This document shows positions 6,759 through 42,157 of a DNA stretch of 64,000 nucleotides, piece by piece (position 1 is the first letter of the stretch; each line of letters opens with the position of its first letter). Source of the DNA: a virus; the IMG/VR virus record IMGVR_UViG_3300011261_000048, positions 29,470 through 93,469 of that record; one strand, written 5' to 3'. A program made the position numbers and the translations under genes. The notes beneath the pieces were generated by a model. That model saw nothing but the letters and a program-made list of their open reading frames with translations. It was not told the origin of the DNA and ran no database searches.

Positions 6759-6781
6759 GTCTCTTTCTCTCTTTATGTGTA

Positions 6782-6789
6782 CAAATATA
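6782..6789 (-). promoter_or_regulatory. Bacteroidota sigma-A type -7 element (TAnnTTTG)
   Basis: TATATTTG on the minus strand just upstream of the scaffold/capsid genes. Confidence 0.65.
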
Positions 6790-6861
6790 CGTACTATTAA
6801 TAATACAAATCACAAAAATTATGTGACATAACAAAAAATATTATCTCCGTGATGACTAAAA

Positions 6862-9303: not shown

Positions 9304-9320
9304 AGGAGTAATATATCTTG

Positions 9321-9328
9321 CAAAGATA
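9321..9328 (-). promoter_or_regulatory. Bacteroidota sigma-A type -7 element
   Basis: TATCTTTG on the minus strand in the TerL-portal gap. Confidence 0.6.
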
Positions 9329-9339
9329 GTAATTTTAAA

Positions 9340-11682: not shown

Positions 11683-11683
11683 A

Positions 11684-12268
11684 TTATATTATACCCTCTT
11701 CTGATGCAGATTCTGTAGCACCGCCTCTTAAATGTCCTTCAGCAGACTCTTTAGATATCTTTTCTCTGATAAGATCAAAGTCACTATAGATTTTACTAGT
11801 GTTTAGTAATAGTTTATCTATCTGCTCAGCAGTTCCCTTTTGTACTCTACCTGTTTCTTCATTATACGTATCTAATGAGTACTTAGTTCCTTTAATAAAC
11901 CTTGCTCTATCTTTAACCTTATCTTCTAACTCTACTAACTCTCTCTTAGCTATAGATAAACATTTAGAATCGTATTCCTCTACTAGTTTTACTACACTGT
12001 CTTCAGTCCAGTCAAAAGCCTCATTATCTAGAAACTCTAGAGCTATAAGCCCTTTCTTATCCTCCCTGGATACATTCTTCCAAGGGTTATCCTCATGTGG
12101 GTCACAGTGTAGAGCTATAGCCCACATAAGTTTACTTGATTTAACCTTGTTCTTACTTTTATCAGCATCCTTAAGTTCCCTGAATAACTTTATACTAGTC
12201 ATTGCTGGGTTTAGTAACCAGTAATTCTCATCTACATTCCAATTCCTACTTATACTCTCCTGACTCAT
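11684..12268 (-). CDS. Hypothetical protein, terminase small subunit candidate by position
   Basis: 194 aa helical ORF abutting TerL; no diagnostic motif. Confidence 0.4.
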   Translation of the reverse strand: MSQESISRNWNVDENYWLLNPAMTSIKLFRELKDADKSKNKVKSSKLMWAIALHCDPHEDNPWKNVSREDKKGLIALEFLDNEAFDWTEDSVVKLVEEYDSKCLSIAKRELVELEDKVKDRARFIKGTKYSLDTYNEETGRVQKGTAEQIDKLLLNTSKIYSDFDLIREKISKESAEGHLRGGATESASEEGII

Positions 12269-12271
12269 AAT

Positions 12272-12559
12272 CTATTTATCTTCTATAATCTCTGATACGG
12301 GACTCATCTTACTAAGCATCTCTTCAGGTATATCCTTTTGGCCACCTTCAATAGATACTAGTTTTGTTTCTCTCTCTTTATTAATTTCTCTTAAGATTGC
12401 TATGTTCTGATTATCCATGAACTCCATTAGAGCTAACATAGTCATTCTTCCCTCAGCATTCTCACATAGGGCAATGACTCTTAAGCCATCTTTACTTACC
12501 CTTGTCATCATGTTATTAAGTACATTAGTTGCACTGTTTACTTCTCTCTCTTTACTCAT
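12272..12559 (-). CDS. Hypothetical protein
   Basis: 95 aa ORF overlapping the GroEL stop, in operon. Confidence 0.6.
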   Translation of the reverse strand: MSKEREVNSATNVLNNMMTRVSKDGLRVIALCENAEGRMTMLALMEFMDNQNIAILREINKERETKLVSIEGGQKDIPEEMLSKMSPVSEIIEDK

Positions 12560-14078
12560 TTACTTCCTTTTTAATTATTACACAGTTAGTAGTAAATAAC
12601 ATGTTTGCTGCACTAACAGCATTTGTTATAGTTGCCTTAATTACTAAAGCAGGATCTACTATTGTACTCTCTATTAACTCTGCTTTTAGTATAGCAGCTT
12701 CACCTTTAGTTAACTCTCCATTCTCACATAGTGTTACCCATAACTTTCTCATACTATCAAATACAATTGGGGCAGCTACGTTACCTTTAAACTTAGGCTC
12801 ACACTTATAGATTAGGTTCTCATAAGCCATACATCCACCTTTAACAACTCCTTGTTCTAGTGCACTCTGTACTGCTCTAATAGTATCATCTAGTCTATCT
12901 TTCTTCTCTTTAACTTCAGCCTCATTAGCTCCTCCTACGTAGATAATAGCTGCACCTGAAGTAAGTAGACCTAACCTCTTCTTGAAGTTCTTAGCTAATC
13001 CTTCCTTATCGTCCTCTATCTTATCTCTGTAGTATTGAACTCTTTCAGCAATAGCTTCAGGTACACCTTTCCTACCAATAATAGTAGTTTCCTTTAAAGT
13101 AATGTTAACTGCATCAGATAAACCTAATGCTCCTACAGTAATACTCTTAACGTCCCATCCTTTCTTCCTAGATATAAAAGCTGCTCCAGTAGCAATAGCT
13201 ATATCTTCTAGTGCCTCTGTTCTAGCATCAGCAATAAAAGGAGCTCTAATAATCTCTATTAAAGAACCATTAGTCTCGTTATTATAAGCAACTATACTAG
13301 CAGCTTGTTCAGTAATGTCCTCACATATAACAAGTAAAGGTCCACCACAACTTTCCTGTAACTTTACTATCTCTACAGCATCTGTTTGAGTAGTGATCTT
13401 CAAGTCAGTAACTAGTATCTTACACTCTAGGTGCTTAACACTAGTTCTACCTCCTACTAAAGCAGGAACAATGTGGCTTCTATCTAACTTAATACCTTCA
13501 GTAGCATCTAAACTAGTCTCGTAGTTTCTTGAATCAAATACAGACACAATACCTTCTACCCCTATTACTTTAAATGCATCACTTACTAATCCAGCAATAT
13601 AACTATCACCATTACAAGCTACCATAGCAACATCTAAAACATCGTCTATAGTAATGTGTTTAGTATTAAGTTCTAGCTCTTCTAGTAGTACCTTTACTAT
13701 CTCATCAATTGAGTTCTTTAATTGAGTAGTGTTTAAAGACTTATTACTATTAAGTACGTTAAATCCTTCCTCTACAATATACCTAGTAAGTATAGTAGTT
13801 GAAGTAGTACCATCTCCAGCAATCTCAGCAGTTTTTGCTGCAGCCTGTCTAATGATCTGGGCTGCAACATTTTCTACTGGGTCTACAAGGTTAATACTGT
13901 TAGCAACAGTTACACCATCTTTTGTAATATGAGCATCGTTAAAGATTTTAGACAACGCTACATTTCTTCCAAAAGGTCCAAAGGTTGTACTTACTGCATC
14001 AAAGATAGTTTGACTACCTTTTAATAATCTTTCTTGTACTTCCTTCCCTTTAATTACCTCACAAGTCTCTCTTACCAT
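12552..14078 (-). CDS. groEL: Chaperonin GroEL-like
   Basis: TFGPFGRNV, ITKDGVTVA, AGDGTTSTT, GGANEAEVKEKKDRLDD, GVVKGG motifs. Confidence 0.95.
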   Translation of the reverse strand: MVRETCEVIKGKEVQERLLKGSQTIFDAVSTTFGPFGRNVALSKIFNDAHITKDGVTVANSINLVDPVENVAAQIIRQAAAKTAEIAGDGTTSTTILTRYIVEEGFNVLNSNKSLNTTQLKNSIDEIVKVLLEELELNTKHITIDDVLDVAMVACNGDSYIAGLVSDAFKVIGVEGIVSVFDSRNYETSLDATEGIKLDRSHIVPALVGGRTSVKHLECKILVTDLKITTQTDAVEIVKLQESCGGPLLVICEDITEQAASIVAYNNETNGSLIEIIRAPFIADARTEALEDIAIATGAAFISRKKGWDVKSITVGALGLSDAVNITLKETTIIGRKGVPEAIAERVQYYRDKIEDDKEGLAKNFKKRLGLLTSGAAIIYVGGANEAEVKEKKDRLDDTIRAVQSALEQGVVKGGCMAYENLIYKCEPKFKGNVAAPIVFDSMRKLWVTLCENGELTKGEAAILKAELIESTIVDPALVIKATITNAVSAANMLFTTNCVIIKKEVNE

Positions 14079-14383
14079 TTTCCTACAAAATTACTTTCTC
14101 TAATCATAAGGTGCTCTCCCTTATTAATAATAATCCCTGAAGCAGACATTGCTACAGTAGTGATAGCTTTATCACCTACCTCTAATGTTACTACTCCTGG
14201 CCCTACAGCTAGTATTTCTACATCCTGCCATATATCAAACATGTTATGCTTCATATATTCTCCCTTCTCTGCAGGAGCTAACTTAGCTAAGTCTCCTTCC
14301 ATTGTTTTCTCCAGTCCGTATACTGGGTTAGCTATTAATACATAGTTAGCTAACGGTGTTGGTAAATTTTTCCCTAAATCCAT
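14072..14383 (-). CDS. groES: Co-chaperonin GroES-like
   Basis: PLANYVLI, ILAVGPG, LEVGD, GEHLMIRES motifs; overlaps the GroEL start. Confidence 0.85.
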   Translation of the reverse strand: MDLGKNLPTPLANYVLIANPVYGLEKTMEGDLAKLAPAEKGEYMKHNMFDIWQDVEILAVGPGVVTLEVGDKAITTVAMSASGIIINKGEHLMIRESNFVGKW

Positions 14384-14400
14384 TTCTCTTTATTTTAAAA

Positions 14401-14643
14401 TTATTTTTTATCCTCTGTGTACATCGCCTTTACTGCAAACATACATGCTTCTTCAAACTTTGTTTGTGCTAAAGCAATTAGCCTGTGTCTTTCCCTGTTA
14501 TCTAAATCAGGAAAAGCTGGTAGTTTTTGACCTTCAATGTAATCAATCATCTCTGCTACCTTCTGTTTCATAGTGTTAGCAGGTTCATAACTTGCTTTGT
14601 TAGGAACTCCTGTTCTCTTTTGTCCAAATGTAAATTCTCCCAT
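14401..14643 (-). CDS. Acb2/Tad1-like helical-hairpin protein (candidate cyclic-nucleotide sponge)
   Basis: 80 aa; C-terminal RLIALAQTKFEEACMFAVKA resembles the hairpin of Acb2/Tad1-type anti-defence proteins. Confidence 0.6.
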   Translation of the reverse strand: MGEFTFGQKRTGVPNKASYEPANTMKQKVAEMIDYIEGQKLPAFPDLDNRERHRLIALAQTKFEEACMFAVKAMYTEDKK

Positions 14644-14655
14644 CTCTTTTTGTTT

Positions 14656-14949
14656 TTAATTACTTTTTTTAAAAAATCCATCTCTCTTAATGGCTGCTCT
14701 CTTCTTGTTTACTTCTTTTAGGAGTGAAACTAACTCTTTCTTTACTAATAATACATCTCCAGTATATAAATGTACATTAGTTAAGTTCTTATTCCCATTC
14801 TCTACTAGTGTACCTACATATTCATCCATGTATTGTATATCTAAAGGATGGATAGCTACTTTACTGTATACAGTCTCTATTTTATCTGTTAACTCATCAG
14901 TCAGTACTTGGATTCTCTCCAGTACTAGTTCTTGTATTTCTACCATCAA
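14656..14949 (-). CDS. Hypothetical protein
   Basis: 97 aa ORF in operon. Confidence 0.6.
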   Translation of the reverse strand: MMVEIQELVLERIQVLTDELTDKIETVYSKVAIHPLDIQYMDEYVGTLVENGNKNLTNVHLYTGDVLLVKKELVSLLKEVNKKRAAIKRDGFFKKSN

Positions 14950-15160
14950 CTATCTTTTTAATTTTACTAGGTTTTGCTACTAACAGTCCTAAATGCCTGA
15001 ACCTTATATTTAAAAAGGTAGCAGGAGTATCAGCTTCTCCCTTCTTAGTGTTTTCCCTAGCACACTCAAACTGAGAATCAGTTATTGCCTTCACTACCTC
15101 CACTGATAAGTCAAACTCCTTAGCTACCTCTTTAATTATATTAGTTACTCTTTTTTGCAT
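14897..15160 (-). CDS. IHF/HU-like DNA-binding protein
   Basis: IIKEVAKEFDLS..VVKAI..SQF helices then NIRFRHLG; IHF-like genes are typical at this site in crAss-like phages. Confidence 0.7.
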   Translation of the reverse strand: MQKRVTNIIKEVAKEFDLSVEVVKAITDSQFECARENTKKGEADTPATFLNIRFRHLGLLVAKPSKIKKIVDGRNTRTSTGENPSTD

Positions 15161-15211
15161 TCTATTTTCATTGTATGAAATCCTGTTCTAGGACCTATAG
15201 TAATCTCTATC

Positions 15212-15412
15212 TTATGACTGTACTTTGGGTGTTCCTTCTCCCACTGTGCTAGTGTGATAATGTGTTTTAGATAATCTTCCAGAAGTAATGACACATTTTG
15301 ATAATGATTCATGTTTCTTAGTTTCGTTTTTAATATCTCTTTGTGCTTCTTTCTGGGCCCGCATAACATCTTCATTATCTAGTCCAGGTATTTCAAAATC
15401 AAGCTCCTCCAT
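15212..15412 (-). CDS. Hypothetical protein
   Basis: 66 aa ORF whose start overlaps the upstream gene end. Confidence 0.5.
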   Translation of the reverse strand: MEELDFEIPGLDNEDVMRAQKEAQRDIKNETKKHESLSKCVITSGRLSKTHYHTSTVGEGTPKVQS

Positions 15413-15776
15413 CTTTCTTAATATTAAATATGAAACTTAATGTAACCTTACTTTCAGGAGAAACTAAATAAACATCACTTATAGTGTTGTCATCTAATAG
15501 TAATCCTCTACTTCTAAGTCCTGTTAAAGCATTTCTAAATATTGCAGTAGAGATATTAAGCTTATCTTCTATTAATCTTCTGCAATCTGGGTCCATGATT
15601 AACTTAAACCTATCATTTTTATTTTTAATTTCTCTCTTCTTATGATTCCAGTATATAAGTTCAGCAAAAACATCTGCTTCTCTATCTCTAATCTTCTTAA
15701 GAAAAGGTTTTAACATCTCTACATAAGCTCTAAAGAACTCTCTCTCTGTAAGTGTTAATCCAAATTCCTTCTTCAT
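15399..15776 (-). CDS. Putative winged-HTH DNA-binding protein
   Basis: IEDKLNISTAIFRNALTGLRSRGLL is an HTH-like pattern; TACATTTG promoter element at 15792-15799. Confidence 0.6.
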   Translation of the reverse strand: MKKEFGLTLTEREFFRAYVEMLKPFLKKIRDREADVFAELIYWNHKKREIKNKNDRFKLIMDPDCRRLIEDKLNISTAIFRNALTGLRSRGLLLDDNTISDVYLVSPESKVTLSFIFNIKKDGGA

Positions 15777-15868
15777 CTCTCTTATTTTCTACAAATGTAA
15801 TAATAATTTCTGTTACTGCAAGTAATGTTGTGTTAAATAATTACTTTTTGGGCAAAATAAAACCCAAA

Positions 15869-16033
15869 TTAATGGGTTTCTTCATCTATTACCATAGAAT
15901 ATCTGTTTAGTTTACCATATCTGGCCCACCAAGTAACCTTAGAACTAAAACCTAACTGCAACCCAGCTAGGGTAAACCTATGTTTATACCAAGTACCTCC
16001 TCTCCATTTCCTATACCAGCTAAATCTCTTCAT
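15869..16033 (-). CDS. Small basic Trp-rich protein (54 aa)
   Basis: Below the ORF-track cutoff; MKRFSWYRKWRGGTWYKH...DEETH*, A-rich leader, followed by a hairpin and T-run. Confidence 0.6.
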   Translation of the reverse strand: MKRFSWYRKWRGGTWYKHRFTLAGLQLGFSSKVTWWARYGKLNRYSMVIDEETH

Positions 16034-16271
16034 ATCTTTTTAATTTAAATGCCTTATCTCCCCGTGCATTTTTGATTTCACCACCACAAACTGCAGAGCT
16101 GTGTCTTGCAGAACAGGAACCGTATACCTCATTTTCCATGATTTTTAACTAACATCTAAAGATGTACTACCTGATCCAAATACTGTCCATCTTTTTTAGG
16201 TAGTATAAGTAAACCCTGTTCTTATGGGAAGAGTGCTCTTATTACTAAGAGACTATAATTATTATAATTTA

Positions 16272-16706
16272 CTATCCTGTTATATTAGGATTATGTGTAA
16301 AATTCAAAATAGGTCTGTACTTCTTTATGTATTTAGCTTCTTTCTTCTTTCTTTCTGTAGCATTACCTTCAAACTTCTCATATTTAAAAGAAGTAAATTC
16401 TTTTTCAGTAGATTTAAAATGTTGAGATAATCTACTAAATATACATATGGATTCTCCTACATAAACAACTTCATTATCTCTAAATAAAAAATATATACCT
16501 GATATACCAAAAAAATCACTTACTGGAAAAGCACCGTTACTGAAATTACTATTTCTTTTTTCTCTAAGCTCCTTTTGTATTTCAATATTTGATTTACCTG
16601 CTTGCTTATTTCGTAACTTAGTAGCTTCTTCATCTAGAAGTAACTCATACTTCCTCATTTCCTCTCTACCTTTACCTTTAAATCCCATGATGCAAATATA
16701 AGCCAA
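16272..16706 (-). CDS. GIY-YIG family endonuclease (true start may be downstream of 16706)
   Basis: SGIYFL...VYVGES...RLSQH...KEAKYI...LN; lies next to the tRNA genes. Confidence 0.85.
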   Translation of the reverse strand: MAYICIMGFKGKGREEMRKYELLLDEEATKLRNKQAGKSNIEIQKELREKRNSNFSNGAFPVSDFFGISGIYFLFRDNEVVYVGESICIFSRLSQHFKSTEKEFTSFKYEKFEGNATERKKKEAKYIKKYRPILNFTHNPNITG

Positions 16707-16747
16707 ATAAATTATATATGCAAATATAAGCTATATAGCTTATAAAG

Positions 16748-16818
16748 TTTTGGGGAGAAGACTTGAACTCCTATTACCTGGACCAAAACCAGGTGTCCTG
16801 CCATTAGACGACCCCAAA
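16748..16818 (-). tRNA. tRNA-Gln(TTG)
   Basis: TTTGGGG/CCCCAAA acceptor, CCTGG-TTTTGGT-CCAGG anticodon arm, TTCAAGT T-loop. Confidence 0.9.
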
Positions 16819-16823
16819 ATATG

Positions 16824-16895
16824 TGGAGATAACAAGATTTGAACTTGTGTCCCTAGTTCTTCAGACTAGTGCTAGGCCAACTCAGCTATATCTCC
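16824..16895 (-). tRNA. tRNA-Phe(GAA)
   Basis: GGAGATA/TATCTCC acceptor, CTAGT-CTGAAGA-ACTAG anticodon arm, TTCAAAT T-loop. Confidence 0.9.
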
Positions 16896-16900
16896 ATATG

Positions 16901-16971
16901 TCTATAAGTCAAGATTCGAACTTGAGTACTCCTACGTCCAAGGTAGGCATGAAACCTGGCTTCGCTTATAG
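16901..16971 (-). tRNA. tRNA-Pro(TGG) with atypical short D-arm
   Basis: CTATAAG/CTTATAG acceptor, CCTAC-CTTGGAC-GTAGG anticodon arm, TTCGAAT T-loop. Confidence 0.8.
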
Positions 16972-16975
16972 ATAT

Positions 16976-17008
16976 AAAAAAAGCCCCTTTAAATTAATAA
17001 AGGAGCTT
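16976..17008 (-). terminator. Intrinsic terminator/attenuator immediately upstream of the tRNA genes
   Basis: Minus strand AAGCTCCTTTA-TTAATT-TAAAGGGGCTT-TTTTT. Confidence 0.85.
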
Positions 17009-17043
17009 AAAATCACGTAACAAAATGTTAAAACATCAACTTA

Positions 17044-17118
17044 TTAGGTAACAGTAAATCCTTTCCAGTAGTGAAACTGAAAAGGTAGAGGCATTGTATT
17101 TACTGTTAATGAGTTCAT
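17044..17118 (-). CDS. Putative 24-aa leader peptide of the tRNA operon
   Basis: MNSLTVNTMPLPFQFHYWKGFTVT*; lies between a promoter and a terminator; coding region is self-complementary. Confidence 0.7.
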   Translation of the reverse strand: MNSLTVNTMPLPFQFHYWKGFTVT

Positions 17119-17579
17119 TATTTTTTCTTTGTGATGCAAATATACATAATTAATATGTACCACCAAACTTTTTTGAAGAAATCTTTAAATTTATTTACTC
17201 TTCTGCCCTTATCTAATAGTAACCACTTATAAAAAGTATGAAAAGAGAAGTTCCTAACTACTAAAACTAGTATTGCTATATACCAAGTTGTTACTAATCC
17301 TATAGCTACGGCCCATAAAGTTATCTTAAGTCTCTTAAATAAATGCCAAGCATCAGTAAAAGAAACAGGCTTAGTAATCTTAAGTACTAAAATAGACCAC
17401 TTAACTCTACCTGAAGCAGGATCCCTATCCACATATTTAGATAACCATGACACATCTGGGTTCCAGAAGTAGGGGTTTGATCTTTTAAATGTACTTACAG
17501 AGAAGTGATGACTCAAAGTATCCATTATAGCATCACATATTCCTGCTAATGCTATACATATTATTACTGCTACTATCAT
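17118..17579 (-). CDS. Membrane protein
   Basis: 153 aa, several hydrophobic segments. Confidence 0.65.
   Translation of the reverse strand: MIVAVIICIALAGICDAIMDTLSHHFSVSTFKRSNPYFWNPDVSWLSKYVDRDPASGRVKWSILVLKITKPVSFTDAWHLFKRLKITLWAVAIGLVTTWYIAILVLVVRNFSFHTFYKWLLLDKGRRVNKFKDFFKKVWWYILIMYICITKKK
17137..17167 (-). promoter_or_regulatory. Bacteroidota sigma-A promoter for the leader/tRNA operon
   Basis: TTTG (17167-17164), 19-nt spacer, TATATTTG (17144-17137). Confidence 0.8.
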
Positions 17580-17875
17580 TCTCCTAAAGATTTAAGTCTT
17601 TTCCAATGCTTAATTACCTGGTAAGCAATTAGAGATAGTATACTTGTACTACCTGCTAGTAATATCCACTTCCAATGCATTTCATGGTAGGCAAATAAGT
17701 CAGGTGCTACTCCTATAAACAGGGTAATACCAATAAACAGGATAAGTAAACCTCCATTCTCTAACTGTAGTAGATGGTCCTTAAAACTGTAGCCATCCCA
17801 TATACCTCCTTTAACAGGGGATAAAAATTCCTTTAATTGCTTTTTCATATTTTCTTTTAATGTTAATACTGACAA
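17576..17875 (-). CDS. Small membrane protein, 2 TM segments (start probably at the internal MKKQLK)
   Basis: Two hydrophobic segments; TACCTTTG element at 17873-17880 upstream. Confidence 0.6.
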   Translation of the reverse strand: MSVLTLKENMKKQLKEFLSPVKGGIWDGYSFKDHLLQLENGGLLILFIGITLFIGVAPDLFAYHEMHWKWILLAGSTSILSLIAYQVIKHWKRLKSLGE

Positions 17876-17920
17876 AGGTAATAAAACCTAGGGAGTGAGT
17901 ATAATTTTTGGGAAATTTTT

Positions 17921-17969
17921 AAAATTTTTTTTTGGATTTGGGGATTTCTAAAAAATTTTTTTGGATTTG
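17921..17969. repeat. Direct repeat AAAATTTTTTT(T)GGATTTG x2 in the divergent intergenic region
   Basis: Two copies seen at about 17921-17940 and 17952-17969. Confidence 0.7.
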
Positions 17970-18242
17970 TAAGTGAGGAGTAACTATTAAAATTGCACCC
18001 CTTCACAATCTTGCGGGTAATACCCCCACCAAAGTCGTAAAAGTGACTTAGTAATTTACAAACTGTTCTTACAGTATTACTAAAGTTGCAATGATGCATA
18101 GCATATAGTGCTCAGAAAGTGTGATACATATACACATCTACACTATGCTCTTGTTGACCCTTTACTTTCTTGGTGTTCTACTGTTGTTGGGAAAATCCTG
18201 ATGACACATACAATTTATATACATAATTAAACACGTAACATT

Positions 18243-18668
18243 ATGACACATTCAGATGCAGTAGGGATACTTAAATCCAAATCAGTAATTTCACAGGCAG
18301 GTAAATACACAGTTAAGTGTACTAATGTGAATGCTTATGTTAATGGTCAAACCATTGCAATTGCTAACTTCAATGCTATGAACGCATATCAATTTGGAGA
18401 GGCTAAAGACCTTCTTAGAGAGGGTAAATTAGATGATGCTACAAACCAAGGTTTGTCTTTATCTATTAGAGGTAATGATTATATGCCTGCAAAGGGAGAA
18501 ATCGTTGATATTGAGGTTTCTGAAGTAACTCTTAAGAGTGGAGAAACAGCATTGTTGGCTACTTCTTTAGTTGCTAGACAGGCTAAAACTGCAGTAAAAG
18601 CAGACTGGTCAGAGTTTGAGATTGATGCTCCTGTAGCAGAGACTCAAGAAGAGGGAGACATCTCTTAA
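18243..18668 (+). CDS. First early gene; possible ssDNA-binding protein
   Basis: 141 aa, beta-rich with acidic C-terminal tail; has its own terminator. Confidence 0.5.
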   Translation: MTHSDAVGILKSKSVISQAGKYTVKCTNVNAYVNGQTIAIANFNAMNAYQFGEAKDLLREGKLDDATNQGLSLSIRGNDYMPAKGEIVDIEVSEVTLKSGETALLATSLVARQAKTAVKADWSEFEIDAPVAETQEEGDIS

Positions 18669-18686
18669 TCTAGGATAGAATATAAT

Positions 18687-18718
18687 AAGGGGAGCACTTA
18701 GGTGTTCCTCTTTTATTT
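18687..18718 (+). terminator. Intrinsic terminator
   Basis: AAGGGGAGCAC-TTAG-GTGTTCCTCTTTT. Confidence 0.8.
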
Positions 18719-18780
18719 GTTCTTAGCATTGTAACTTATAACTGAATCTCAGATAAATTAATCACTAAAAATAAATAAAA

Positions 18781-25477: not shown

Positions 25478-25507
25478 TATTTATTAACTAAAACTAAAAC
25501 TAAAATT

Positions 25508-25633
25508 ATGTATAAAGTTGTAACAACAGATGATAAAAATACTGCATTGTTTTATGGTACTTATGATGAGTGTGAGGAGTGGGCAAGAAATAACCATCAT
25601 ACTTACGGCCCTATGAATATATTACCATATTAA
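25508..25633 (+). CDS. Small protein (41 aa)
   Basis: Below the cutoff; MYKVVTTDD...FYGTYDECEEW. Confidence 0.55.
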   Translation: MYKVVTTDDKNTALFYGTYDECEEWARNNHHTYGPMNILPY

Positions 25634-25648
25634 CTAAAACTAACTAAG

Positions 25649-26029
25649 ATGAAAAAAGAATTTATACCATATGAAGAAGCATTAGTCTTAAAAGAATTAG
25701 GTTTTGATTATTGTTGTTTTTGTTCTTATCCTGAAAAAGATAAATTATCTGATTCTTTTGGAACTTTTTACAGAATAACACCTAGTAAAGTTGTGTTAGC
25801 ACCTTTATACCAACAAGTATTTAGATGGTTTAGAGACATACATAATATGCCTCACTCAATAATTGTAGGCACAAATCCTACAACAAATATTGCTTATGCT
25901 AACAACATACCAGCAGTTATTGAGGGCAAAACAGATAGTGTATATACTACCTACGAAGAAGCAGAACTCGCTTGTCTTAGAAAATTAATTGAAATTGTAA
26001 AACAAGAACAAGATGAAAAAAGAATGTAA
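25649..26029 (+). CDS. Hypothetical protein, paralogue of 21723-22094
   Basis: ALVLKELGFD...APLYQQVFRWFR...TYEEAE. Confidence 0.7.
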   Translation: MKKEFIPYEEALVLKELGFDYCCFCSYPEKDKLSDSFGTFYRITPSKVVLAPLYQQVFRWFRDIHNMPHSIIVGTNPTTNIAYANNIPAVIEGKTDSVYTTYEEAELACLRKLIEIVKQEQDEKRM

Positions 26030-26726
26030 AACACACATGTTACCTACTAAAGGTGAAAGTCAGATACACGAAATTGATAAAAACTATTTATATTTTTCAA
26101 TATCTCAAGCAGTGCCAGCAGATAGAAGATACCACCTATACATAACAGATGACTCTAAGATTGAGGAAGGTGATTGGGTTTATAACCATGCCACCAACAA
26201 AATTTTTCAACCAAAGGGTCTAGCTGTTAATTTAGTAGGGCTTAGAAAAATAATAGCCTCTACCGATAAGTCATTAACAGTAAAAGAAACTATCAAAGTT
26301 GGAGACATAGTTAACAGCAGTAAAGAAGACTTTAATATTCAGCAAGTTCACACGCAAGAGAGTGCTAACCTTTACAATAAGTCAGACCACTACTTTAAGT
26401 GTTTACCACAAATCCCACAAGACTTCATCAAACAATACTGTGAGAATCCAGTTGAGAGTGTTTTGGTGGAGTATGAATTTAATGGAGGTGCTTGTAGTTT
26501 GGAAGAAGGGTGTACAGAACCCACAGAAGAATGTACTTGTGAACCCATTATATATTATAAGCCAACACTAAAAGACAACTGTATAATCATATCTCCTATT
26601 GAAGAGAAGAAGAAACACCCAACACCATTTAGTTTGATTAGAAAGTTCACGCAAGACCATCCCCTTGAAAGAGGTTTGCAAATTCTTGATAGTGATATTG
26701 AAAAATGGATTAAAGAAAACTTATGA
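26013..26726 (+). CDS. Hypothetical protein
   Basis: 237 aa; HLYITDD.KI.EGDW, KIIASTD, LPQIPQ.FI motifs. Confidence 0.7.
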   Translation: MKKECKTHMLPTKGESQIHEIDKNYLYFSISQAVPADRRYHLYITDDSKIEEGDWVYNHATNKIFQPKGLAVNLVGLRKIIASTDKSLTVKETIKVGDIVNSSKEDFNIQQVHTQESANLYNKSDHYFKCLPQIPQDFIKQYCENPVESVLVEYEFNGGACSLEEGCTEPTEECTCEPIIYYKPTLKDNCIIISPIEEKKKHPTPFSLIRKFTQDHPLERGLQILDSDIEKWIKENL

Positions 26727-26779
26727 TTATGGCTTCGAGGGTTTAAAGAATGAATTACTAAACCAGTTAACTTTTTAAA

Positions 26780-27137
26780 TAACGATTGCAATATGTTTAG
26801 TTACGGATTAATAATAACTTAAAATTTTATAAAATGGAAAATACGATAAACAAATACACAGAGAAACTTGCGATATTAAAAGAGAATAGAGAAAAAACAG
26901 TAGATACTAATACTGATGCAGAAAATGAACTATACGACCAACTAATTAAGCAAGTTGCGGAGTTTGTTAGAGACTTGAAGCAATTAAATATATTATGTGT
27001 TAGCAACTGCAGGGAACTGTTACTTGCTTTCGCTGAATATTGGAATGGATGTAATAACTCTTTAATTGAAGAAACAAACATTGATGAGTTTCTTAAAAGC
27101 AAGTAATTGTTGCTAACGGACAAGAATATGAAGCGTT
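26780..27137 (+). mobile_element. attC-like inverted-repeat/cassette relic overlapping ORF 26834-27106
   Basis: TAAC..AATATGTTTAGTTAC / GCAATTAAATATATT..GTTAG arms; GTTAGCAAC...GTTGCTAAC perfect inverted repeat. Confidence 0.45.
26834..27106 (+). CDS. Hypothetical protein spanning the attC-like junction
   Basis: 90 aa; junction peptide LCVSNCRELLLAF. Confidence 0.65.
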   Translation: MENTINKYTEKLAILKENREKTVDTNTDAENELYDQLIKQVAEFVRDLKQLNILCVSNCRELLLAFAEYWNGCNNSLIEETNIDEFLKSK

Positions 27138-27176
27138 TTAATGCTTTGCAAATAATTAATAAATAACTTTACAAAA

Positions 27177-28142
27177 ATGAGAAAAGTAACAAAAGATGAA
27201 GTAATAGAAAAATATAAAGATGCATTACGAATAAAAAGTACATTTGGACACCCTTTTACACTTGACTTAAGTACTTTACATGGCAATGGTAGTTCTTGGT
27301 ATGTAAAAGATGGTGTGGATATGGTTAGAAACATATATACGGCTACTGAAAATGAGCCGTGGGGAGAAATAATAACATTTAAAGCTAAATCTAATGTAGT
27401 AACAGATGAACATTTAAAGCACTTTAACTACGAGTACCCAAAAGAAGTATTAGAATTATGGTGTAAAGAGCAAGTATTACAAGGTAATAAATTTGACCCT
27501 ACTAAACTTAAAAAGGATAAAGGCTCAGGTGGGGTGCTTTGGCGTACATCTACTCAAGGACATAGTTTCTGGCAACGGATAATAGAGGATAAAATGTTTG
27601 ATAGTGCACGTATACCTGCACCTAGGCCTACTGAATATGCCTATAAACATAACTACCCTCCTAAAGTTAATGAAACAAAGAAAGTAGTTTGGTACAGAAT
27701 AGTAAAGCCTTTACATTATGACGGGGAGCCAAGGGTATTAGTTAAGTCTTCTAAACCTCTTCCTGAAGTAGGTGATATTTCTTGGGAAATTACCCCTATT
27801 ACAGGGAAAAGTATAGACTGTATACATTTAGAGCGTAATAAATTCAGTGCTAATATAGATAAAAGCTGTGTAGTAGAAATAGATAATCCTTATGATTCTA
27901 AACCAACAGTACATGGTGGAAGTTGGATGGGATTAACTAGTGAAAACCATTTAGGTAAATCATTTGTAATTAATAGTGATAATGCAGGAAGTATACAGTT
28001 ACCATGGGAAACACATACGTATAGTAGTAAAACAGAACTAGTACCTAAAAAAGAATCTAGCTCTATGCTTAAAAAAATAGGGGAACCTATTATCTTTAAA
28101 AAGAAGAAAGAAAGAAAACGTAATTTAATAATAACCAAATAA
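27177..28142 (+). CDS. Mosaic hypothetical protein containing a capsid-like motif
   Basis: 321 aa; residues 250-260 WMGLTSENHLG. Confidence 0.7.
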   Translation: MRKVTKDEVIEKYKDALRIKSTFGHPFTLDLSTLHGNGSSWYVKDGVDMVRNIYTATENEPWGEIITFKAKSNVVTDEHLKHFNYEYPKEVLELWCKEQVLQGNKFDPTKLKKDKGSGGVLWRTSTQGHSFWQRIIEDKMFDSARIPAPRPTEYAYKHNYPPKVNETKKVVWYRIVKPLHYDGEPRVLVKSSKPLPEVGDISWEITPITGKSIDCIHLERNKFSANIDKSCVVEIDNPYDSKPTVHGGSWMGLTSENHLGKSFVINSDNAGSIQLPWETHTYSSKTELVPKKESSSMLKKIGEPIIFKKKKERKRNLIITK

Positions 28143-28151
28143 AAAGTAAAC

Positions 28152-28514
28152 ATGAGTTTAACAGAAGGAGTAACAGAAGGAGTATCGTATTTTGTAAAGC
28201 AAACTATTGCCTTGATGAAAGGAGATACAGATGAAGCATTAGCTTTAAAGAACAGAAAAAGAGCAATTGCTGGTATCAAAGCAGAATTAACTCAATTAGA
28301 GTTATTGAAAATGGATGCAGAGCAAGAAGTAGAAGATGCTGAAGCATTAGTGAAAGCTGCAAAGTTTCCAGTAGAATTAATTACTGACACTAAGAGCTAC
28401 ATCTTTAATCTTAAAGAATATTTAGGATTACTAGAGACTAGACAGGATGCTTTAGATGATGTAAATCATTCTATAGAATTTCAAACTGGTTTACTAGCTG
28501 AAATCTCTAAGTAA
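28152..28514 (+). CDS. Coiled-coil hypothetical protein
   Basis: 120 aa, heptad-like; terminator hairpin at 28521-28549. Confidence 0.7.
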   Translation: MSLTEGVTEGVSYFVKQTIALMKGDTDEALALKNRKRAIAGIKAELTQLELLKMDAEQEVEDAEALVKAAKFPVELITDTKSYIFNLKEYLGLLETRQDALDDVNHSIEFQTGLLAEISK

Positions 28515-28572
28515 AATTAAAACCCTCTCTTGAAATATAGGGAGGGTTATTATTAACCTAAAAAATCACAAT

Positions 28573-28782
28573 ATGATCACATTACCAATAATAATTACTT
28601 TAGTAGTTATACTATGGAATTATATAACCTACAGAAAATGTAGAAAAGTTAAAGCAAAATTTAACTTATTTGAAGCATGTGTATATGAGAAATGGAAAAC
28701 CACTAGGTATTTTATAAACACTTCTTACATTTGCTTACTTATAACAGCAATAGGACTATTAATAATATATTATTGTCCTTAG
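28573..28782 (+). CDS. Small membrane protein
   Basis: 69 aa, two hydrophobic segments. Confidence 0.6.
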   Translation: MITLPIIITLVVILWNYITYRKCRKVKAKFNLFEACVYEKWKTTRYFINTSYICLLITAIGLLIIYYCP

Positions 28783-28805
28783 TATTAATCTAAAAAATTA
28801 AAGAT

Positions 28806-29078
28806 ATGTTTGAATCAGAATGTAAAATATTATACCAAGATTATGATAAAAAGCATCTTAAGAGGTGTTTGAAAGTCCTAAAGAAAAGGCAACAGATGGA
28901 TCCAGATGATGAATTAGCATATCATATAAACTATCTTGAAGATAGAATTTACTTTTTAGCAATTACTAACAGTAGACTAGAAAGGCTTAGAAATTGGCTT
29001 GTAGAGTCAGCTGATTTATTCATAGTATTTTTTGGAATCTTAATGGCTATGCTATTATTATATATACTGATTAAATAG
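28806..29078 (+). CDS. Hypothetical protein with C-terminal TM segment
   Basis: 90 aa, hydrophobic C-terminus. Confidence 0.6.
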   Translation: MFESECKILYQDYDKKHLKRCLKVLKKRQQMDPDDELAYHINYLEDRIYFLAITNSRLERLRNWLVESADLFIVFFGILMAMLLLYILIK

Positions 29079-34022: not shown

Positions 34023-36997
34023 ATGATATATTTAATAACTAATCAAACATCAATAGGTTTAGAAAAAGGTATCAAACAGGCTTCTTTACAGGAGTGTATT
34101 AGTTACCTTTCAGGTATACCTACGCTAGGATTAGATATAGAAACTACTAGGAAGTATAATAAGTATTTTGATTTTGAGGGTTTAGATCCTCACACATCTA
34201 AAATAGTAATGTTACAGATAGGAGATTTACATAATCAATATGTTATTGATACTAGAAATGTAGACATTAGTCCTTTAGTTCCTATGTTTGGTAATAAAGA
34301 TATCACCTTTGTAGGACACAATATAGCCTTTGAGTATAAACATATACTTAAGAACTATGGAGTAAGACTTGCAAAAGTATATGACACTATGATTTCAGAG
34401 CAGTTGCTTAACAATGATGGTGTACAGAAATCCTACTCTTTAAATGCTTTAAATGAGAAGTATTTAGATATTACAGTAGATAAAAGTATTAGGTTAGGTT
34501 TCCTTACTATAGGAGACAGGCCATTTAGTACACATGAAATAATTTATGGTGCTGATGATATTATTAATCCTTTAAGGATAAAGGCTTATCAAGAAGTACA
34601 GATGAGTGCAGAGCATAAGGATATAGAACCTGTGTTTAAATTAGAGATGCGTTTCCTATTAGGTAAGGCAGAGATGGAATATGTTGGAGTACCTTTTAAT
34701 AGGCACATATGGGAAAGTACTTATAATGAAAATTTAAAATTGTTTAATGAAAAAACAGTTGGGCTAAATGAATTTATTATTGCTAACTTCCCTAATAGCC
34801 CATTTATAGAAAGACAATTAGACTTATTTGATGAGTCTACTAAATGTTCTATACAATGGACTTCTTCTAAACAAGTTATAGAATTCTTAAACTTCTTAGG
34901 TATATGTCCTAGAGCAAAATCTAAAACTACTAAAAAGGTTAGAGATACAGCAGAGGCAAAAGAAGTAAGAGCTATACTATTAAGAGATGACCTTAGTGAT
35001 CTAATTAAGGACTTTGTTAAAAGCTACTTAAGTATGAAAGAGTTAGAGCAAAGAGTAACAACTTTTGGTATTAAATTCTTAAAGCATATTAATCCTATTA
35101 CAGGTAGAATACATAGTCATTATAAACAGATACTAAATACAGGAAGAATTTCTAGTAGTGGGCCCAATAACCAAAACATACCTGCTCAACATGAGTTTAG
35201 GAGTGCGTTTTGTGCTGATGAAGGCTCTTACTTAGTTAATGCAGATTACAGTGGTTTGACAATTCAACATATTTTACTAACTTTGTAGTAAAATAATACG
35301 TTATGAATCCAATTAATAAATTTACAGAAGAAAAAAATCAAGAAATACTTAGGTTATATGAAGAAGGTATGTCTCAAAAAGACATTGCTATACTTTACAA
35401 CACATATAATACGTCTATACGTAGAGTATTACTAAGAAATAATATAGCTATTAGAAGCAATAAAGAAATACAAAGTTACATTTCAACTAATCCGTTTAGG
35501 TTAGGAGAGGATGAATCTGATTACTTCTTTGGTTTACTAGTAGCTGATGGATGTATAAGTGCTAATAGACTTACATTAGGACTAAAAAAAGATGATATTT
35601 ATATGTTATATAGGTATGCTAACTTTTTAGGGACTAAAGTAAACGTAAATAGTTATTTTCATAAAAATCACAATAAATTTCAATATGAAGTTAAAGTTAG
35701 AAATGAAGAGATTACCATATTTTTACAAAAGCAAGCACAATTTATTAATAAAAGTGAAAAATTACAGTTATTTATACCGTTAACATGGGCTATACTTAGA
35801 GGTATAACTGATGGGGATGGGGGTTTTATAAAATTAGGCAAGACTAAAAATCAGTTAAGATGGTTTGTAGTAAGTAAGTCTAAGAAGTTTATTGTACAAA
35901 TTTATGAATTTCTAGTAAAAGAAGGGTATCACCCTACTATTACAGGTAATTATGAAAGTTGTTATTATGTAAACTTATATCGTAAAACAGAATTATGTAA
36001 TTTTTTTAAAGATTTATATCAAGATACAGATGTTTACTTAAAACGTAAATATTCTATTTTGGCCACCTTCTATGAGAAATCACTGAAGTAAAACAACCTA
36101 AATTCAGGGAAAGAGAGTATCTTCCAACCCTGAGCAAAATCTATACACCCTAGTGGTAAATTTAAGTATATAGAGATGTGCAGAGACTATAATGGTTGCA
36201 CCTAAACGAGAAAGTTAGACGTAGGTGAAGGGATAGTCCATCCAAGTTGAAGGACGCAAGAGTCAGTGATCTTAGTTAATAATTCTTTAGATGATGATTT
36301 ACTAGAGTTTTATGATAATGGAGGAGGAGATTTGCATAGTTTTGTTGCAAAGAAGATATGGCCAGATTTATTAGGAGGATTATCTCTAGATGAAGTCAAG
36401 GCAGAACATAAAGAAAAGAGACAAATTGCTAAGTCAGCAAACTTTGCCTTAGCCTATGGAGGTAATGGTTTTACTATTGCATCTAATTTAGGTATATCTG
36501 CTGCAGAAGGAGATAGAGTTTATGAGGATTATTTTAAGGCCTTTCCAGGATTAAAGACTTACTTTGAAAGTGTAGTTAAGCAATCATTGGCACAAGGGTA
36601 CATACTTATTGATCCTCATACAAAAAGAAAGTTTTTCTTTCCTTATATTAATGAATACTATAAGTATCAATATCAAGGTAATAAAAGAAAGGCTGATGAA
36701 TTAGAAGGTAAAATGTCTAGGGCAGCTATGAATTATTGTATTCAAGGTGCTGCAGGAAGTATGACAAAATATGCCATTGTATTAATTTATGAATGGTTAC
36801 TAGGTAATAAAGAATTACTAGAAAATATAAAATTAGTATTAACAGTCCATGATGAAATAATTCTAGAAGCTAAAGAAGGCTACCAAGACATTGCAAAAGA
36901 AAAACTATCTCACTATATGGTAGAGGCAGGAAGTGTGTGGTGTAAAAGAGTACCTATTAAGGCTGATGCTGTGATTTCAACAATATGGGAACATTAA
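34023..36997 (+). CDS. polA: Family A DNA polymerase, exons 34023-35255 and 36257-36997
   Basis: Exonuclease DIET; splicing restores motif A DYSG|QE; motif B RQIAKSANFALAYG; motif C TVHDE. Confidence 0.93.
35256..36256 (+). mobile_element. Group I intron in polA
   Basis: Exon ends in U, intron ends in G; guide GGCCAC near 36061; core words GCAGAGACTA and GGGATAGTCC. Confidence 0.9.
35303..36091 (+). CDS. Intron-encoded LAGLIDADG homing endonuclease with N-terminal HTH
   Basis: FFGLLVADG and ILRGITDGDG motifs. Confidence 0.9.
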   Translation: MNPINKFTEEKNQEILRLYEEGMSQKDIAILYNTYNTSIRRVLLRNNIAIRSNKEIQSYISTNPFRLGEDESDYFFGLLVADGCISANRLTLGLKKDDIYMLYRYANFLGTKVNVNSYFHKNHNKFQYEVKVRNEEITIFLQKQAQFINKSEKLQLFIPLTWAILRGITDGDGGFIKLGKTKNQLRWFVVSKSKKFIVQIYEFLVKEGYHPTITGNYESCYYVNLYRKTELCNFFKDLYQDTDVYLKRKYSILATFYEKSLK

Positions 36998-41323: not shown

Positions 41324-42157
41324 ATGAGCAAAGGAGTGGTATTACCAACAGGTAAACACAAAGTGACAAGGGAAGACCCCAAAGTGATGGTTATTTATGG
41401 ACCACCAAAAGTTGGGAAGACAACATTATTAAGTTTATTACCAAATAACTTAATATTGGATTTAGAGAGAGGATCAGAATATGTAGAAGCAATGTCTATG
41501 TGTATTATAGGATGGATGCCTCCAGTAGGAGAAACCAAAGCCTCTATAGATGCTAGAATGGCTACTGTAGATAGTAATGGAGATGAAAAACCTTCAGAAT
41601 ACTATATTACAGAAGTTGGACAAGGTATTATGAAAGCAGGTAGACCTTATGATTTTATTACTGTAGATACAGTAACAGAATTAGAAGACATGGTAATGCC
41701 TATGGCAGTAGCAATGTATAAATCTTCTCCTATGGGAGGAAATTATGATGGTACTAATGTTAAAGAATTACCTAGAGGTGCAGGTTATTATTATTTAAGA
41801 GAAGCATTTAAAGAAGCAATTGAGAAATTGAAGAAACTTGCTAATAATATAATTTTAGTAGGTCATGTAAAAGATACTTTCATAGATAAGAAAGGAAAAG
41901 AAGTAGCAGCTAAAGATTTAGATCTTACAGGTAAAATTAAATTTACTGTATGTGCTAATGCAGATGCTATAGGTTTCTTACATAGAGGGCCAGATTCAGA
42001 AATTCTGATAAACTTTAAAAGCAATGATGAAATAATGTGTGGAGCTAGATGCAAACACTTAAAAGGTGCTGAAATTAAAGTAGCAGAATACGATGAAGAA
42101 ACAGAAGAATTAGTTAACGTAAAATGGGAATTAATATACCCATCATTAAAAAAGTAA
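41324..42157 (+). CDS. AAA ATPase (AAA_24/Sak4-like)
   Basis: YGPPKVGKT, ILDLERG, ITVDT, LVGH motifs. Confidence 0.85.
   Translation: MSKGVVLPTGKHKVTREDPKVMVIYGPPKVGKTTLLSLLPNNLILDLERGSEYVEAMSMCIIGWMPPVGETKASIDARMATVDSNGDEKPSEYYITEVGQGIMKAGRPYDFITVDTVTELEDMVMPMAVAMYKSSPMGGNYDGTNVKELPRGAGYYYLREAFKEAIEKLKKLANNIILVGHVKDTFIDKKGKEVAAKDLDLTGKIKFTVCANADAIGFLHRGPDSEILINFKSNDEIMCGARCKHLKGAEIKVAEYDEETEELVNVKWELIYPSLKK

Follow-up and report, generated by a model that had tools for sequence, protein, structure and literature searches.

A small gene of an uncultured crAss-like marine phage is a mosaic of two modules, probably joined across integron-like cassette boundaries

In the genome of an uncultured crAss-like marine phage we find a short gene whose two halves occur separately in other proteins and whose joints coincide with inverted repeats resembling the attC sites of integrons. 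The DNA analysed, hereafter the window, is a stretch of 64,000 nt that corresponds to bases 29470-93469 of virus record IMGVR_UViG_3300011261_000048, which is 93,469 nt long and rated 98% complete. The gene is an open reading frame (ORF) on the + strand at 26834-27106 and encodes a 90-aa protein, P0001. We think it probable that the repeats in and around it are the arms of three back-to-back cassette-boundary sites, here called E1, E2 and E3, and that the gene consists of the translated joints of a non-canonical integron-like cassette system. An original prediction, made from the letters of the window, had noticed attC-like sites cutting through this ORF and had proposed that recombination at GTT fuses different N- and C-terminal halves.

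The protein is a mosaic of two modules

An exhaustive search of 1.84 billion protein cluster representatives returned 46 homologues of P0001, 40 with the N-module only (query residues 1-~52), four with the C-module only (residues ~45-90) and two with both, namely P0003, whose C-part is diverged, and P0022, which is doubtful. This 40/4/2 split agrees with the proposal that the gene is a fusion of separately circulating halves. A word-based search of 5.8 billion proteins gave 20 matches. In 14 of them a common C-terminal stretch of 36 residues (VSNxRELLLAFAEYWNGCxNSLIEETNIDEFLKSK) follows N-parts of at least nine unalignable kinds, while five share the first ~50 residues and then have nothing or another tail. 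The junction lies at the V-S codons (GTT AGC), where it had been predicted, and homologues of the junction peptide do have swapped flanks, both in the 14 proteins that carry the C-module behind different N-parts and in the representatives, 44 of which are not colinear with P0001.

The N-module stands alone in proteins of 52-60 aa or forms the N- or C-terminal part of proteins of up to 214 aa, and the substitutions between its homologues are conservative. Several N-module proteins consist of the module, then QLN[IL]xxV[ST], then unrelated sequence, and the linker [AQ]LN[IL]xxV[ST] is found behind unrelated N-parts as well as ahead of unrelated C-parts. Judged by these alignments, the gene is truly mosaic: its N-module (aa 1-~52) and its C-module (aa ~55-90) are found apart from one another. 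Neither P0001 nor its homologues matched a Pfam or PHROG family (a sub-threshold Zw10_middle match was treated as noise), the ESM Atlas held nothing at or above 0.9, and no structural match named a family. The viral contig collection contained no relatives of either module alignment or of the 321-aa protein encoded downstream, and the cultured-phage collection gave no match to window 26000-29000 (blastn) or to P0001 (tblastn).

Three boundary sites lie across the gene

Every string named in the original prediction is present in the sequence where it had been placed, all on the + strand. E1 extends over 26777-27005; its left box is diverged, its inner arms pair well and its loop measures 190 nt. 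Its left arm (26777-26804) is made up of the box AAATAAC (26777-26783, with TAAC at 26780-26783), a 6-nt spacer (26784-26789) and the inner arm AATATGTTTAGTTAC (26790-26804); it is non-coding, lies upstream of the start codon and pairs with 26980-27003 in a stem present in both the minimum-energy and the centroid fold. The right arm (26980-27005) is made up of the inner arm GCAATTAAATATATT (26980-26994), the 4-nt spacer ATGT (26995-26998) and the box GTTAGCA, of which GTTAG occupies 26999-27003, and it is translated in frame as the linker QLNILCVS. The E1 loop carries the ribosome-binding region, the start codon and the N-module (aa 1-52, 26834-26989), a widespread ~50-aa phage domain that occurs alone or fused at either end; the start of the ORF does therefore fall within the stretch enclosed by the long-range pair, as had been claimed.

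E2 (26999-27117) is a 119-nt hairpin-forming block that coincides with the C-module, encoding aa 56-90 and the stop codon and running 11 nt beyond. Its outer stem joins 26999-27007 to 27109-27117 in a perfect 9-nt repeat, which an inverted-repeat search recovered as GTTAGCAAC and its exact inverse GTTGCTAAC, in line with the original prediction; its inner stem joins 27020-27030 to 27096-27106 in an 11-bp perfect repeat. Neighbouring sites share box sequence: the E1 right box and the E2 left box overlap in GTTAGCAAC, and the E2 right box and the E3 left box in GTTGCTAAC. E3 (27106-27179), which takes in the truncated arm TAAC..AATATGAAGCGTT (starting at 27114) of the original prediction, is a decayed short boundary hairpin with its left box and apical loop intact and its right arm lost. 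Another decayed short boundary hairpin lies at 26709-26777, directly after the stop codon of the upstream gene 26013-26726.

Within the window, these repeats are of modest weight. The long-range pair of E1 has 11 Watson-Crick pairs, two G.T pairs and one mismatch across the inner 14 nt; it scores 9.5/10 and ranks first of the 455 TAAC...GTTA pairs in the 64 kb, with ~0.2 pairs as good expected per resampled window (maximum two in eight resamples). A repeat search with a 6-nt seed did not list it, and judged by the window alone it is only marginal. Perfect 9-nt inverted pairs with a gap of at most 150 nt number 150 in the window against 106 +/- 13 expected, so that the 9-nt repeat alone is unremarkable, and GTTGCTAAC with at most one mismatch occurs 19 times against 14.9 expected. 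The motif TAACG-N4-10-ATATG occurs three times against 0.42 expected, a count reached in none of 100 shuffles. Both long-range stems are contained in the minimum-energy and centroid folds, with a fold z-score of -1.44, compared with -3.60 for the counterpart at the metagenome locus L002 described below. A repeat family inside the window was rejected because the motifs are not enriched there, and neither the module nor the LN[IL]xxV[ST] linker has a second copy elsewhere in the phage genome. Because the evidence inside the window is thin, the case rests on comparison with other DNA. There, both pairs are retained in every related DNA found, with compensatory changes; conserved repeats and homologues that are not colinear are the opposite of what the original prediction had named as telling against it.

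Shared blocks end at the boxes

C-module DNA was compared with two metagenome contigs, L001 and L002, and with contig pieces from Logan. The latter came from a search that pointed to 20 runs, each carrying small shares of the query (at most 0.14 of words); five of the 12 pieces were used (records 2, 8, 9, 10 and 11, from four runs of four studies), and records 1, 3, 4, 5, 6, 7 and 12, at 34-40 nt with 3-8 differences, were left out as too short. L001 and L002 share window 26989-27118 and are unalignable on both sides of it. The C-module is 92-94% identical to L001/L002 and 97-98% identical to Logan contigs X1, X5 and X7, all with unrelated flanks: X1-2 and X5-10 match 27014-27117/27119 with two differences, behind a different N-part, X7-11 matches 26989-27118 with three differences, and the three continue into three differing downstream sequences. 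Copies of the gene differ mainly at third codon positions. In the coding part, the window differs from L002 at nine of 111 nt, seven of them at codon position 3, and from L001 at seven of 111 nt, six of them at position 3. This third-position bias, together with the unrelated flanks, indicates that the C-module is a selected coding sequence that was recently moved. The 11 non-coding bases after the stop codon, including GTTGCTAAC, are identical in the window, L001 and L002, and similarity is lost within the next one or two bases.

The ends of the shared blocks are sharp. In five of five contexts (L001, L002, X1, X5 and X7) the C-module block ends at 27117-27119, right after GTTGCTAAC. The block shared with the N-module contig X4-8 (26908-27006, 97% identical, three differences) ends at 27006; beyond it the contig diverges, reading ...GTTAGCAA|T, ~20 other bases and ATTGCTAAT, and it keeps the stem of window 26999-27007/27109-27117 around this ~20-nt interior, with a C-G pair changed to T-A. 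Another variant, A>G at 27022 in a contig, turns an A-T pair of the E2 inner stem into G.T. At a different gene, L002 ORF 1463-1693, 12 of 12 phage records among the matches listed stop at L002 1704, where a ...TTACAAC box has its final base. All resolvable block ends directly follow an ...AAC box, which would correspond to the canonical crossover point AA|C, provided that the phage + strand is the recombining strand. The proposal of recombination at GTT thus stands in part: the mosaic, from which we infer recombination, agrees with it, and the sharp ends are found near GTT but also behind ...AAC boxes. We also considered a miniature inverted-repeat transposable element with 9-nt terminal repeats; there is no target-site duplication at three junction sets, and this idea is kept only within the question of mechanism.

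Related boundary hairpins recur in marine Flavobacteriia phages

The plan seen in E1 recurs many times at L002, which is 8.7 kb of small + strand ORFs separated by one repeated intergenic arrangement. The stop codon is followed by (ACA)TAAC-G and, beyond a spacer of 4-6 nt, by an arm such as GTATATGAAA; the complementary arm lies across a loop of 20-150 nt, with another spacer of 1-4 nt between it and GTTA(TGT). TAAC...GTTA pairs with a 10-nt inner pairing of at least 9/10 number 12 there, against 0.3 expected (maximum two in 20 resamples). The letters of the arms vary from copy to copy while their complementarity within a copy is kept. Among 15 elements from L001, L002, Polaribacter phage P12002L and the window, cognate arms pair at 12.0/14 compared with 5.4 +/- 2.5 for non-cognate arms, and the own right arm is the best partner for 14 of the 15 left arms. 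The window shares this trait: the E1 left arm pairs with its own right arm at 12.0/14, equalled by none of 14 foreign right arms, and the E2 outer stem is kept in X4. Spacers are asymmetric in 14 of the 15 elements, the left one measuring 4-6 nt and the right one 1-4 nt.

At L002 4900-5022 such an element encloses the N-half of P0007, which is unrelated to the N-module of the window, and its arms have the same position, different letters and compensated pairs. ORFs that start in the loop and read through the right arm are also found at L002 3686, 6806 and 8388 and in gp030 and gp033 of phage phi19:3, and L002 ORF 6806 reads the right arm in another frame (YTLYTLLV). Because the arms recur with ORF starts, once in another frame, we take LNIxxVS to be the translation of a nucleic-acid motif and not the reverse. 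A peptide ..VV(S/G)GRSEQ(F/L).. follows the translated right arm both at L002 8388-8615 and in phi19:3 (L006) 1882-2106, and may be another circulating module.

A covariance model, R1, built from five short (~75 nt) phage elements of other loci, recovers eight further members in L001, L002 and P12002L (L004) at E <= 0.0074. In the resulting set of 13 sequences, 90.4% of cells are paired compared with 74.6% in shuffled alignments (0 of 500 shuffles reach it), and compensatory change is seen in 13 of 22 pairs (slid controls, 24-52%). Three helices and an internal loop make up the consensus, in which G.T pairs are invariant (13/13 and 12/12); the short form of the family measures about 60-76 nt. 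The hairpins bound small genes in marine Flavobacteriia phages, on the gene strand and just after stop codons, and also stand between genes where no ORF reads through the hairpin. Cultured phages of Polaribacter, Cellulophaga, Nonlabens, Tenacibaculum and Maribacter have sequences matched by pieces of L002. The sites that flank the mosaic probably belong to this family. Its left box ATTGTTGCTAACGG and apical loop CGTTTTAATG(C) are both present in window 27106-27147, and R1 gives weak scores to the hairpin at 26709-26777 (15.9 bits; E 0.44 in a whole-window search, 0.0058 in a 1.1-kb unfiltered search) and to E3 (12 bits, E 0.05 in a 1.1-kb local search; absent from the whole-window listing).

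The family also connects the locus to published attC sites. A cluster of such sites has been reported in P12002L (Qi et al. 2023, PMC9892861), and one of them, P12002L_attC1 (L004 501-565, - strand), is a family member by R1 (34.4 bits, E 5e-6) that was outside the training set. Its region shares ATTGTTGCTAACGG (14/14 nt) and CGTTTTAATGC (11/11 nt) with window 27106-27147. The Figure 2 legend of that paper gives P12002L_attC1 as predicted by HattCI alone. In the same paper, integrase-less attC clusters (CALINs) are documented in virulent phages, and five of six sites were recombined by IntI1. P12002L attC2 (L003 6264-6330) recombined in the published assay but is unmatched by R1.

Several DNA methyltransferase genes lie between family hairpins: at L001 294-700 (downstream of the C-module), at L004 579-2627 (three, in P12002L) and at L005 1910-2467 (phage Danklef_1). 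This placement fits the remark of Qi et al. (PMC9892861) that phage cassettes often carry orphan methyltransferases.

Arrays of the same hairpins in Bacteroidota

A pattern of the left box ATTGTTGCTAACGG and the loop CGTTTTAATG(C), scanned over one-per-species genomes, matched at least 120 places and recovers family members in Bacteroidota genomes. We fetched 80 of these loci, 57 with titles that name Bacteroidota taxa, and R1, which was trained on phage elements only, gave 45 matches in 35 of the 80. (Whole-genome R1 searches scored the best 150 of 630-2767 candidates and are not usable as counts.) At 30 of the 45 places the element is on one strand and the ORFs to either side of it are on the other, with the upstream stop overlapping the box and the next start close behind; four same-strand cases are phage-like contigs of small ORFs. 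The neighbours of the bacterial elements are unrelated accessory genes. Relative to the genes the elements are sense in phages but antisense in bacteria, and their polarity is therefore a property of the DNA element, not of the transcript.

Two bacterial arrays, three elements in a Rufibacter genome (G001) and five to six in a Flavobacteriales genome (G004), are each headed by a co-directional tyrosine recombinase. They lie at L138 (G001:C10:160000-178500) 13400-17343 and at L137 (G004:C1:1520000-1539999) 6479-18760, respectively. In both, the unrelated accessory genes share one strand and the hairpins between them occupy the other. The recombinases (383-481 aa) are orthologous and 49% identical, in genomes of different orders, and they match the IntI model in two stretches, skipping positions 182-239, which we take to be the IntI-specific insert. 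R1 had no match beside the IntI-like genes of three other genomes (G002, G003 and G005). NF040815, the top family of the array recombinases, is not discriminating: 92 of 151 Bacteroidia genomes (a tally that includes the unpublished G099) have proteins above its cut-off, including ~300-aa proteins that are probably XerC/D. Rfam gave no match on seven bacterial loci. The two arrays look like an integron-like platform. We found no paper on such a platform in the literature searched, and the main text of Cury et al. 2016 (PMC4889954) mentions Bacteroidetes 0 times.

Comparison with known systems

Canonical attC sites have the boxes R'' (RYYYAAC) and R' (GTTRRRY), which are mutually complementary, and none of the three sites has them. 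In E1, AAATAAC and GTTAGCA each agree at 5/7 positions and only TAAC/GTTA are complementary; in E2, TAGCAAC and GTTGCTA each agree at 4/7, though 9/9 nt are complementary; in E3, TGCTAAC agrees at 5/7 and the right box is lost. Paired inner L boxes set off by unpaired spacers are present in E1 (11 Watson-Crick and two G.T pairs in 14 nt; spacers of 6 and 4 nt). With attC sites being ~57-141 nt long, E2 (119 nt) and the short form (60-76 nt) lie within the range and E1 (229 nt) beyond it. The original prediction had noted that there is no integrase in the window, and this extends to the 98%-complete genome of 93,469 nt, in which TIGR02249 (E <= 0.001) and PF00589 (E <= 0.1) had 0 matches each. 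The proposed attC identity therefore holds to the extent that the sites are related to the P12002L attC call and to Bacteroidota cassette boundaries, and fails as regards a canonical integron, given the missing integrase, the boxes and the 229-nt length.

The likeness to attC sites and CALINs lies in several features: imperfect inverted repeats with ...AAC/GTT... boxes, unpaired spacers and paired inner arms, ~60-120 nt in the short form and E2; unrelated accessory genes that all point one way in an array, with a single site at each boundary; a stop codon often within the box; a phage without an integrase; and P12002L_attC1 itself predicted as attC. They differ in that the family boxes depart from RYYYAAC/GTTRRRY and the family member tested with IntI1 failed; that phage genes lie on the better-pairing strand, the reverse of the bacterial arrays; that the sites here are translated, one loop holding a gene start and 50 codons; and that the bacterial recombinase is Xer-like, below threshold for IntI, with the central part of the model unmatched, and co-directional. 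Sedentary chromosomal integrons such as the Vibrio VCR arrays are long same-direction cassette arrays with one repeat family beside a tyrosine recombinase. The G001 and G004 arrays show the same arrangement, unlike them in being from Bacteroidota, in having another repeat family and a co-directional recombinase below the IntI cut-off, and in lying outside the window.

The regulatory motifs of T4-type phages called PeSLs, which mediate modular shuffling according to Arbiol et al. 2010 (PMC2839356), are also alike: short conserved structured motifs between small non-essential early genes that mark the ends of exchanged modules. As described there, a PeSL combines a sigma-70 promoter and a terminator, whereas here neither signal is above chance. 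In window 25500-28600 we counted 17 promoter-like sites, compared with 14.1 +/- 4.0 in shuffles, and one terminator-like site, away from the mosaic gene, against 1.1 expected; Rfam 15 had no match at E <= 1 on 26000-28000. The elements here also differ from PeSLs in their attC-like boxes, in belonging to a family shared with chromosomes of the host phylum, and in having joints in frame, which lead to protein fusions.

Genome context

The window has a G+C content of ~32% and encodes a crAss-type portal, terminase, major head protein, ribonucleotide reductase, family-A DNA polymerase and giant virion proteins. The mosaic gene sits among a run of small + strand ORFs at ~18-34 kb of the window. 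The family-A DNA polymerase is encoded in two separate pieces (34023-35288 and 36266-36997), between which ORF 35303-36091 carries LAGLIDADG_3 and HTH_7; the interrupted polymerase (34023-36997) suggests an intron or a free-standing homing-endonuclease insertion. A further LAGLIDADG_2 endonuclease is encoded at 44488-45075. The replication block includes an AAA_24 (PF13479) protein at 41324-42154, which we take to be of the Sak4 class of phage single-strand annealing proteins and which is a candidate for short-homology recombination, a general route.

Other genes are of interest in their own right. A 105-aa ORF at 30434-30751 matches PF18909, the dATP/dGTP diphosphohydrolase N-terminal domain (E 2.7e-31), a type that we understand to accompany base-replacement (2-aminoadenine) pathways in some phages. 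Neighbouring ORFs at 47579-49206 have a prokaryotic JAB domain (weak, 24.1 bits) and a ThiF-family domain, a pair reminiscent of ubiquitin-like conjugation modules. On the - strand, 12552-14078 encodes a 508-aa GroEL-type chaperonin (phrog_5725, E 3.6e-94) that adjoins the terminase and portal genes.

Discussion

How might such a gene arise? Sites of this family end in ...GCTAAC / GTTAGC... boxes, have inner arms that pair though their letters vary, and include a ~60-nt short form; they separate co-directional accessory genes in Bacteroidota arrays and small early or accessory genes in phages of marine Flavobacteriia. The gene in the window appears to have been built over three of them, the E1 loop supplying the start and the N-module, the E1 right arm the linker LNIxxVS, and E2, wholly translated, the C-module, with E3 presumably a decayed site. 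The comparisons show that the contents of these two slots circulate independently, that shared blocks stop at the boxes and that the arms are selected to pair; from this we infer an exchange among phages with joints at the boxes, a cassette-type process that would produce in-frame fusions. Recombination at the boxes might take either of two routes: a host Xer/IntI-like tyrosine recombinase could act site-specifically in trans, or the short shared boxes could be used by general or phage recombination functions. We slightly favour the site-specific route over short homology and RNA structure because the shared boxes are only ~10-16 nt long, because the resolvable ends all lie directly after ...AAC, because the polarity with its invariant G.T pairs is independent of the direction of transcription, and because related arrays adjoin a dedicated recombinase in two bacterial orders.

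A number of observations weigh against reading the locus as cassette boundaries. The case inside the window is a single locus, with no other family member in this phage and no enrichment of TAAC...GTTA pairs of at least 8/10 across the window (15 observed, 19.4 expected), and R1 gives no detection of E1 or E2, only the weak scores for the flanking sites. The 13-sequence alignment (A5) was fitted to R1 and so favours its structure. The excess of G.T over A.C in the arms, 44 to 9 compared with a non-cognate baseline of 2.2 to 1, is modest (p = 0.014), and E1 itself has two of each. The C-module DNA comes from three loci and three contig pieces, with only three different upstream contexts, and the N-module DNA from one piece; block ends are resolvable only down to the shared box, and hence do not separate site-specific from short-homology exchange. 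No IntI, tyrosine or serine recombinase was found in the phage genome, nor a recombinase in P12002L or phage JQ, and the tyrosine recombinases near the arrays of phi19:3 and Danklef_1 resemble lysogeny integrases (gp036 scores 27.6 bits on XerD), consistent with the reading, in PMC8776804, of Polaribacter phage integrases as signs of a temperate lifestyle. On the bacterial side, the G001 and G004 recombinases score 219.5 and 200.5 bits on the IntI model, below the cut-off of 265, they point in the same direction as the array instead of diverging from it, and elements adjoin the recombinase in two of the four best IntI-like loci examined (one other contig ends at the gene). Finally, section 3.4 of Qi et al. 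(PMC9892861) identifies P12002L_attC1 as the sole one of six phage sites without a verified IntI1 (attI1) junction.

It is also possible that the arms are RNA-level structures, acting in processing, stability or translation control, and that ordinary homologous or illegitimate recombination simply ends at the sole shared motifs, in the manner of PeSLs, which (PMC2839356) are a precedent for shuffling via regulatory motifs. Such a model would account for the position of the phage elements on the gene strand just past stop codons, for three near-invariant G.U-type pairs and the 44-to-9 preference for G.T on that strand, and for the A>G variant at 27022, which gives a G.T pair in the E2 inner stem; it would also suit a phage with no recombinase found and with an AAA_24 protein, presumably of the Sak4 class. 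We nonetheless judge it unlikely. In 30 of 45 places the bacterial elements are antisense to both neighbours, so that the better-pairing strand is not the mRNA, boxes of ~10-16 nt are short for homologous exchange, the G.T excess is slight, and neither Rfam nor the promoter-like (17 vs 14.1) and terminator-like (1 vs 1.1) counts point to a regulatory element. If the explanation lay at the protein level only, with two small domains and a conserved linker LNIxxVS and with the nucleotide repeats as by-products of coding or chance, one would expect purifying selection on both modules, which we see in the third-position differences and in the conservative N-module substitutions, and one could point to the 150 9-nt inverted repeats in this AT-rich window and to a window pair that is marginal alone. 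But two non-coding arms, the left one of E1 and the right one of E2, are conserved and change in step with the coding arms they pair with, L002 ORF 6806 reads the arm in another frame, and hairpins also stand between genes with no ORF through them; we find this explanation very hard to credit. Still less credible to us is a canonical integron with true attC sites and IntI recombination at G|TT. The layout of box, spacer and inner arm on each side with TAAC/GTTA ends, the stop codons inside the ...TAAC box, the HattCI call of a family member and the phage CALINs with IntI1 activity at five of six sites in PMC9892861 do all speak for it. They are set against a genome with no TIGR02249 or PF00589 match, boxes that agree at 4-5/7 positions, a 229-nt E1, spacers asymmetric in 14 of 15 elements, failure of the family member tested with IntI1, a working attC2 that R1 does not match, and array recombinases that fall below the IntI cut-off and skip model positions 182-239.

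Returning to the cassette-boundary reading, we speculate, tentatively, that Bacteroidota phages join a non-canonical integron-like cassette economy run by host Xer/IntI-like recombinases without the IntI-specific insert, in which translated sites shuffle protein modules in frame. The hairpin family and the translated cassette joints appear to be undescribed, as we found no description in the literature searched, from which subscription journals are absent. The published phage attC-like calls are now linked to a large Bacteroidota repeat family, with two genomes that have recombinase-headed arrays, and it becomes possible to ask whether Bacteroidota have an integron-like platform, whether phages draw on it, and how the hypervariable early regions of flavophages, including crAss-like ones, gain and recombine small genes.

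Integron-type cassettes move whole genes. The mosaic in this phage suggests that a system of cassette swapping can also reshuffle portions of phage proteins. With joints inside the reading frame, such exchange would build proteins from halves, and would do so in lytic phages that encode no recombinase. If this is true, it would be a site-specific generator of chimeric early proteins, going beyond changes in gene order alone.

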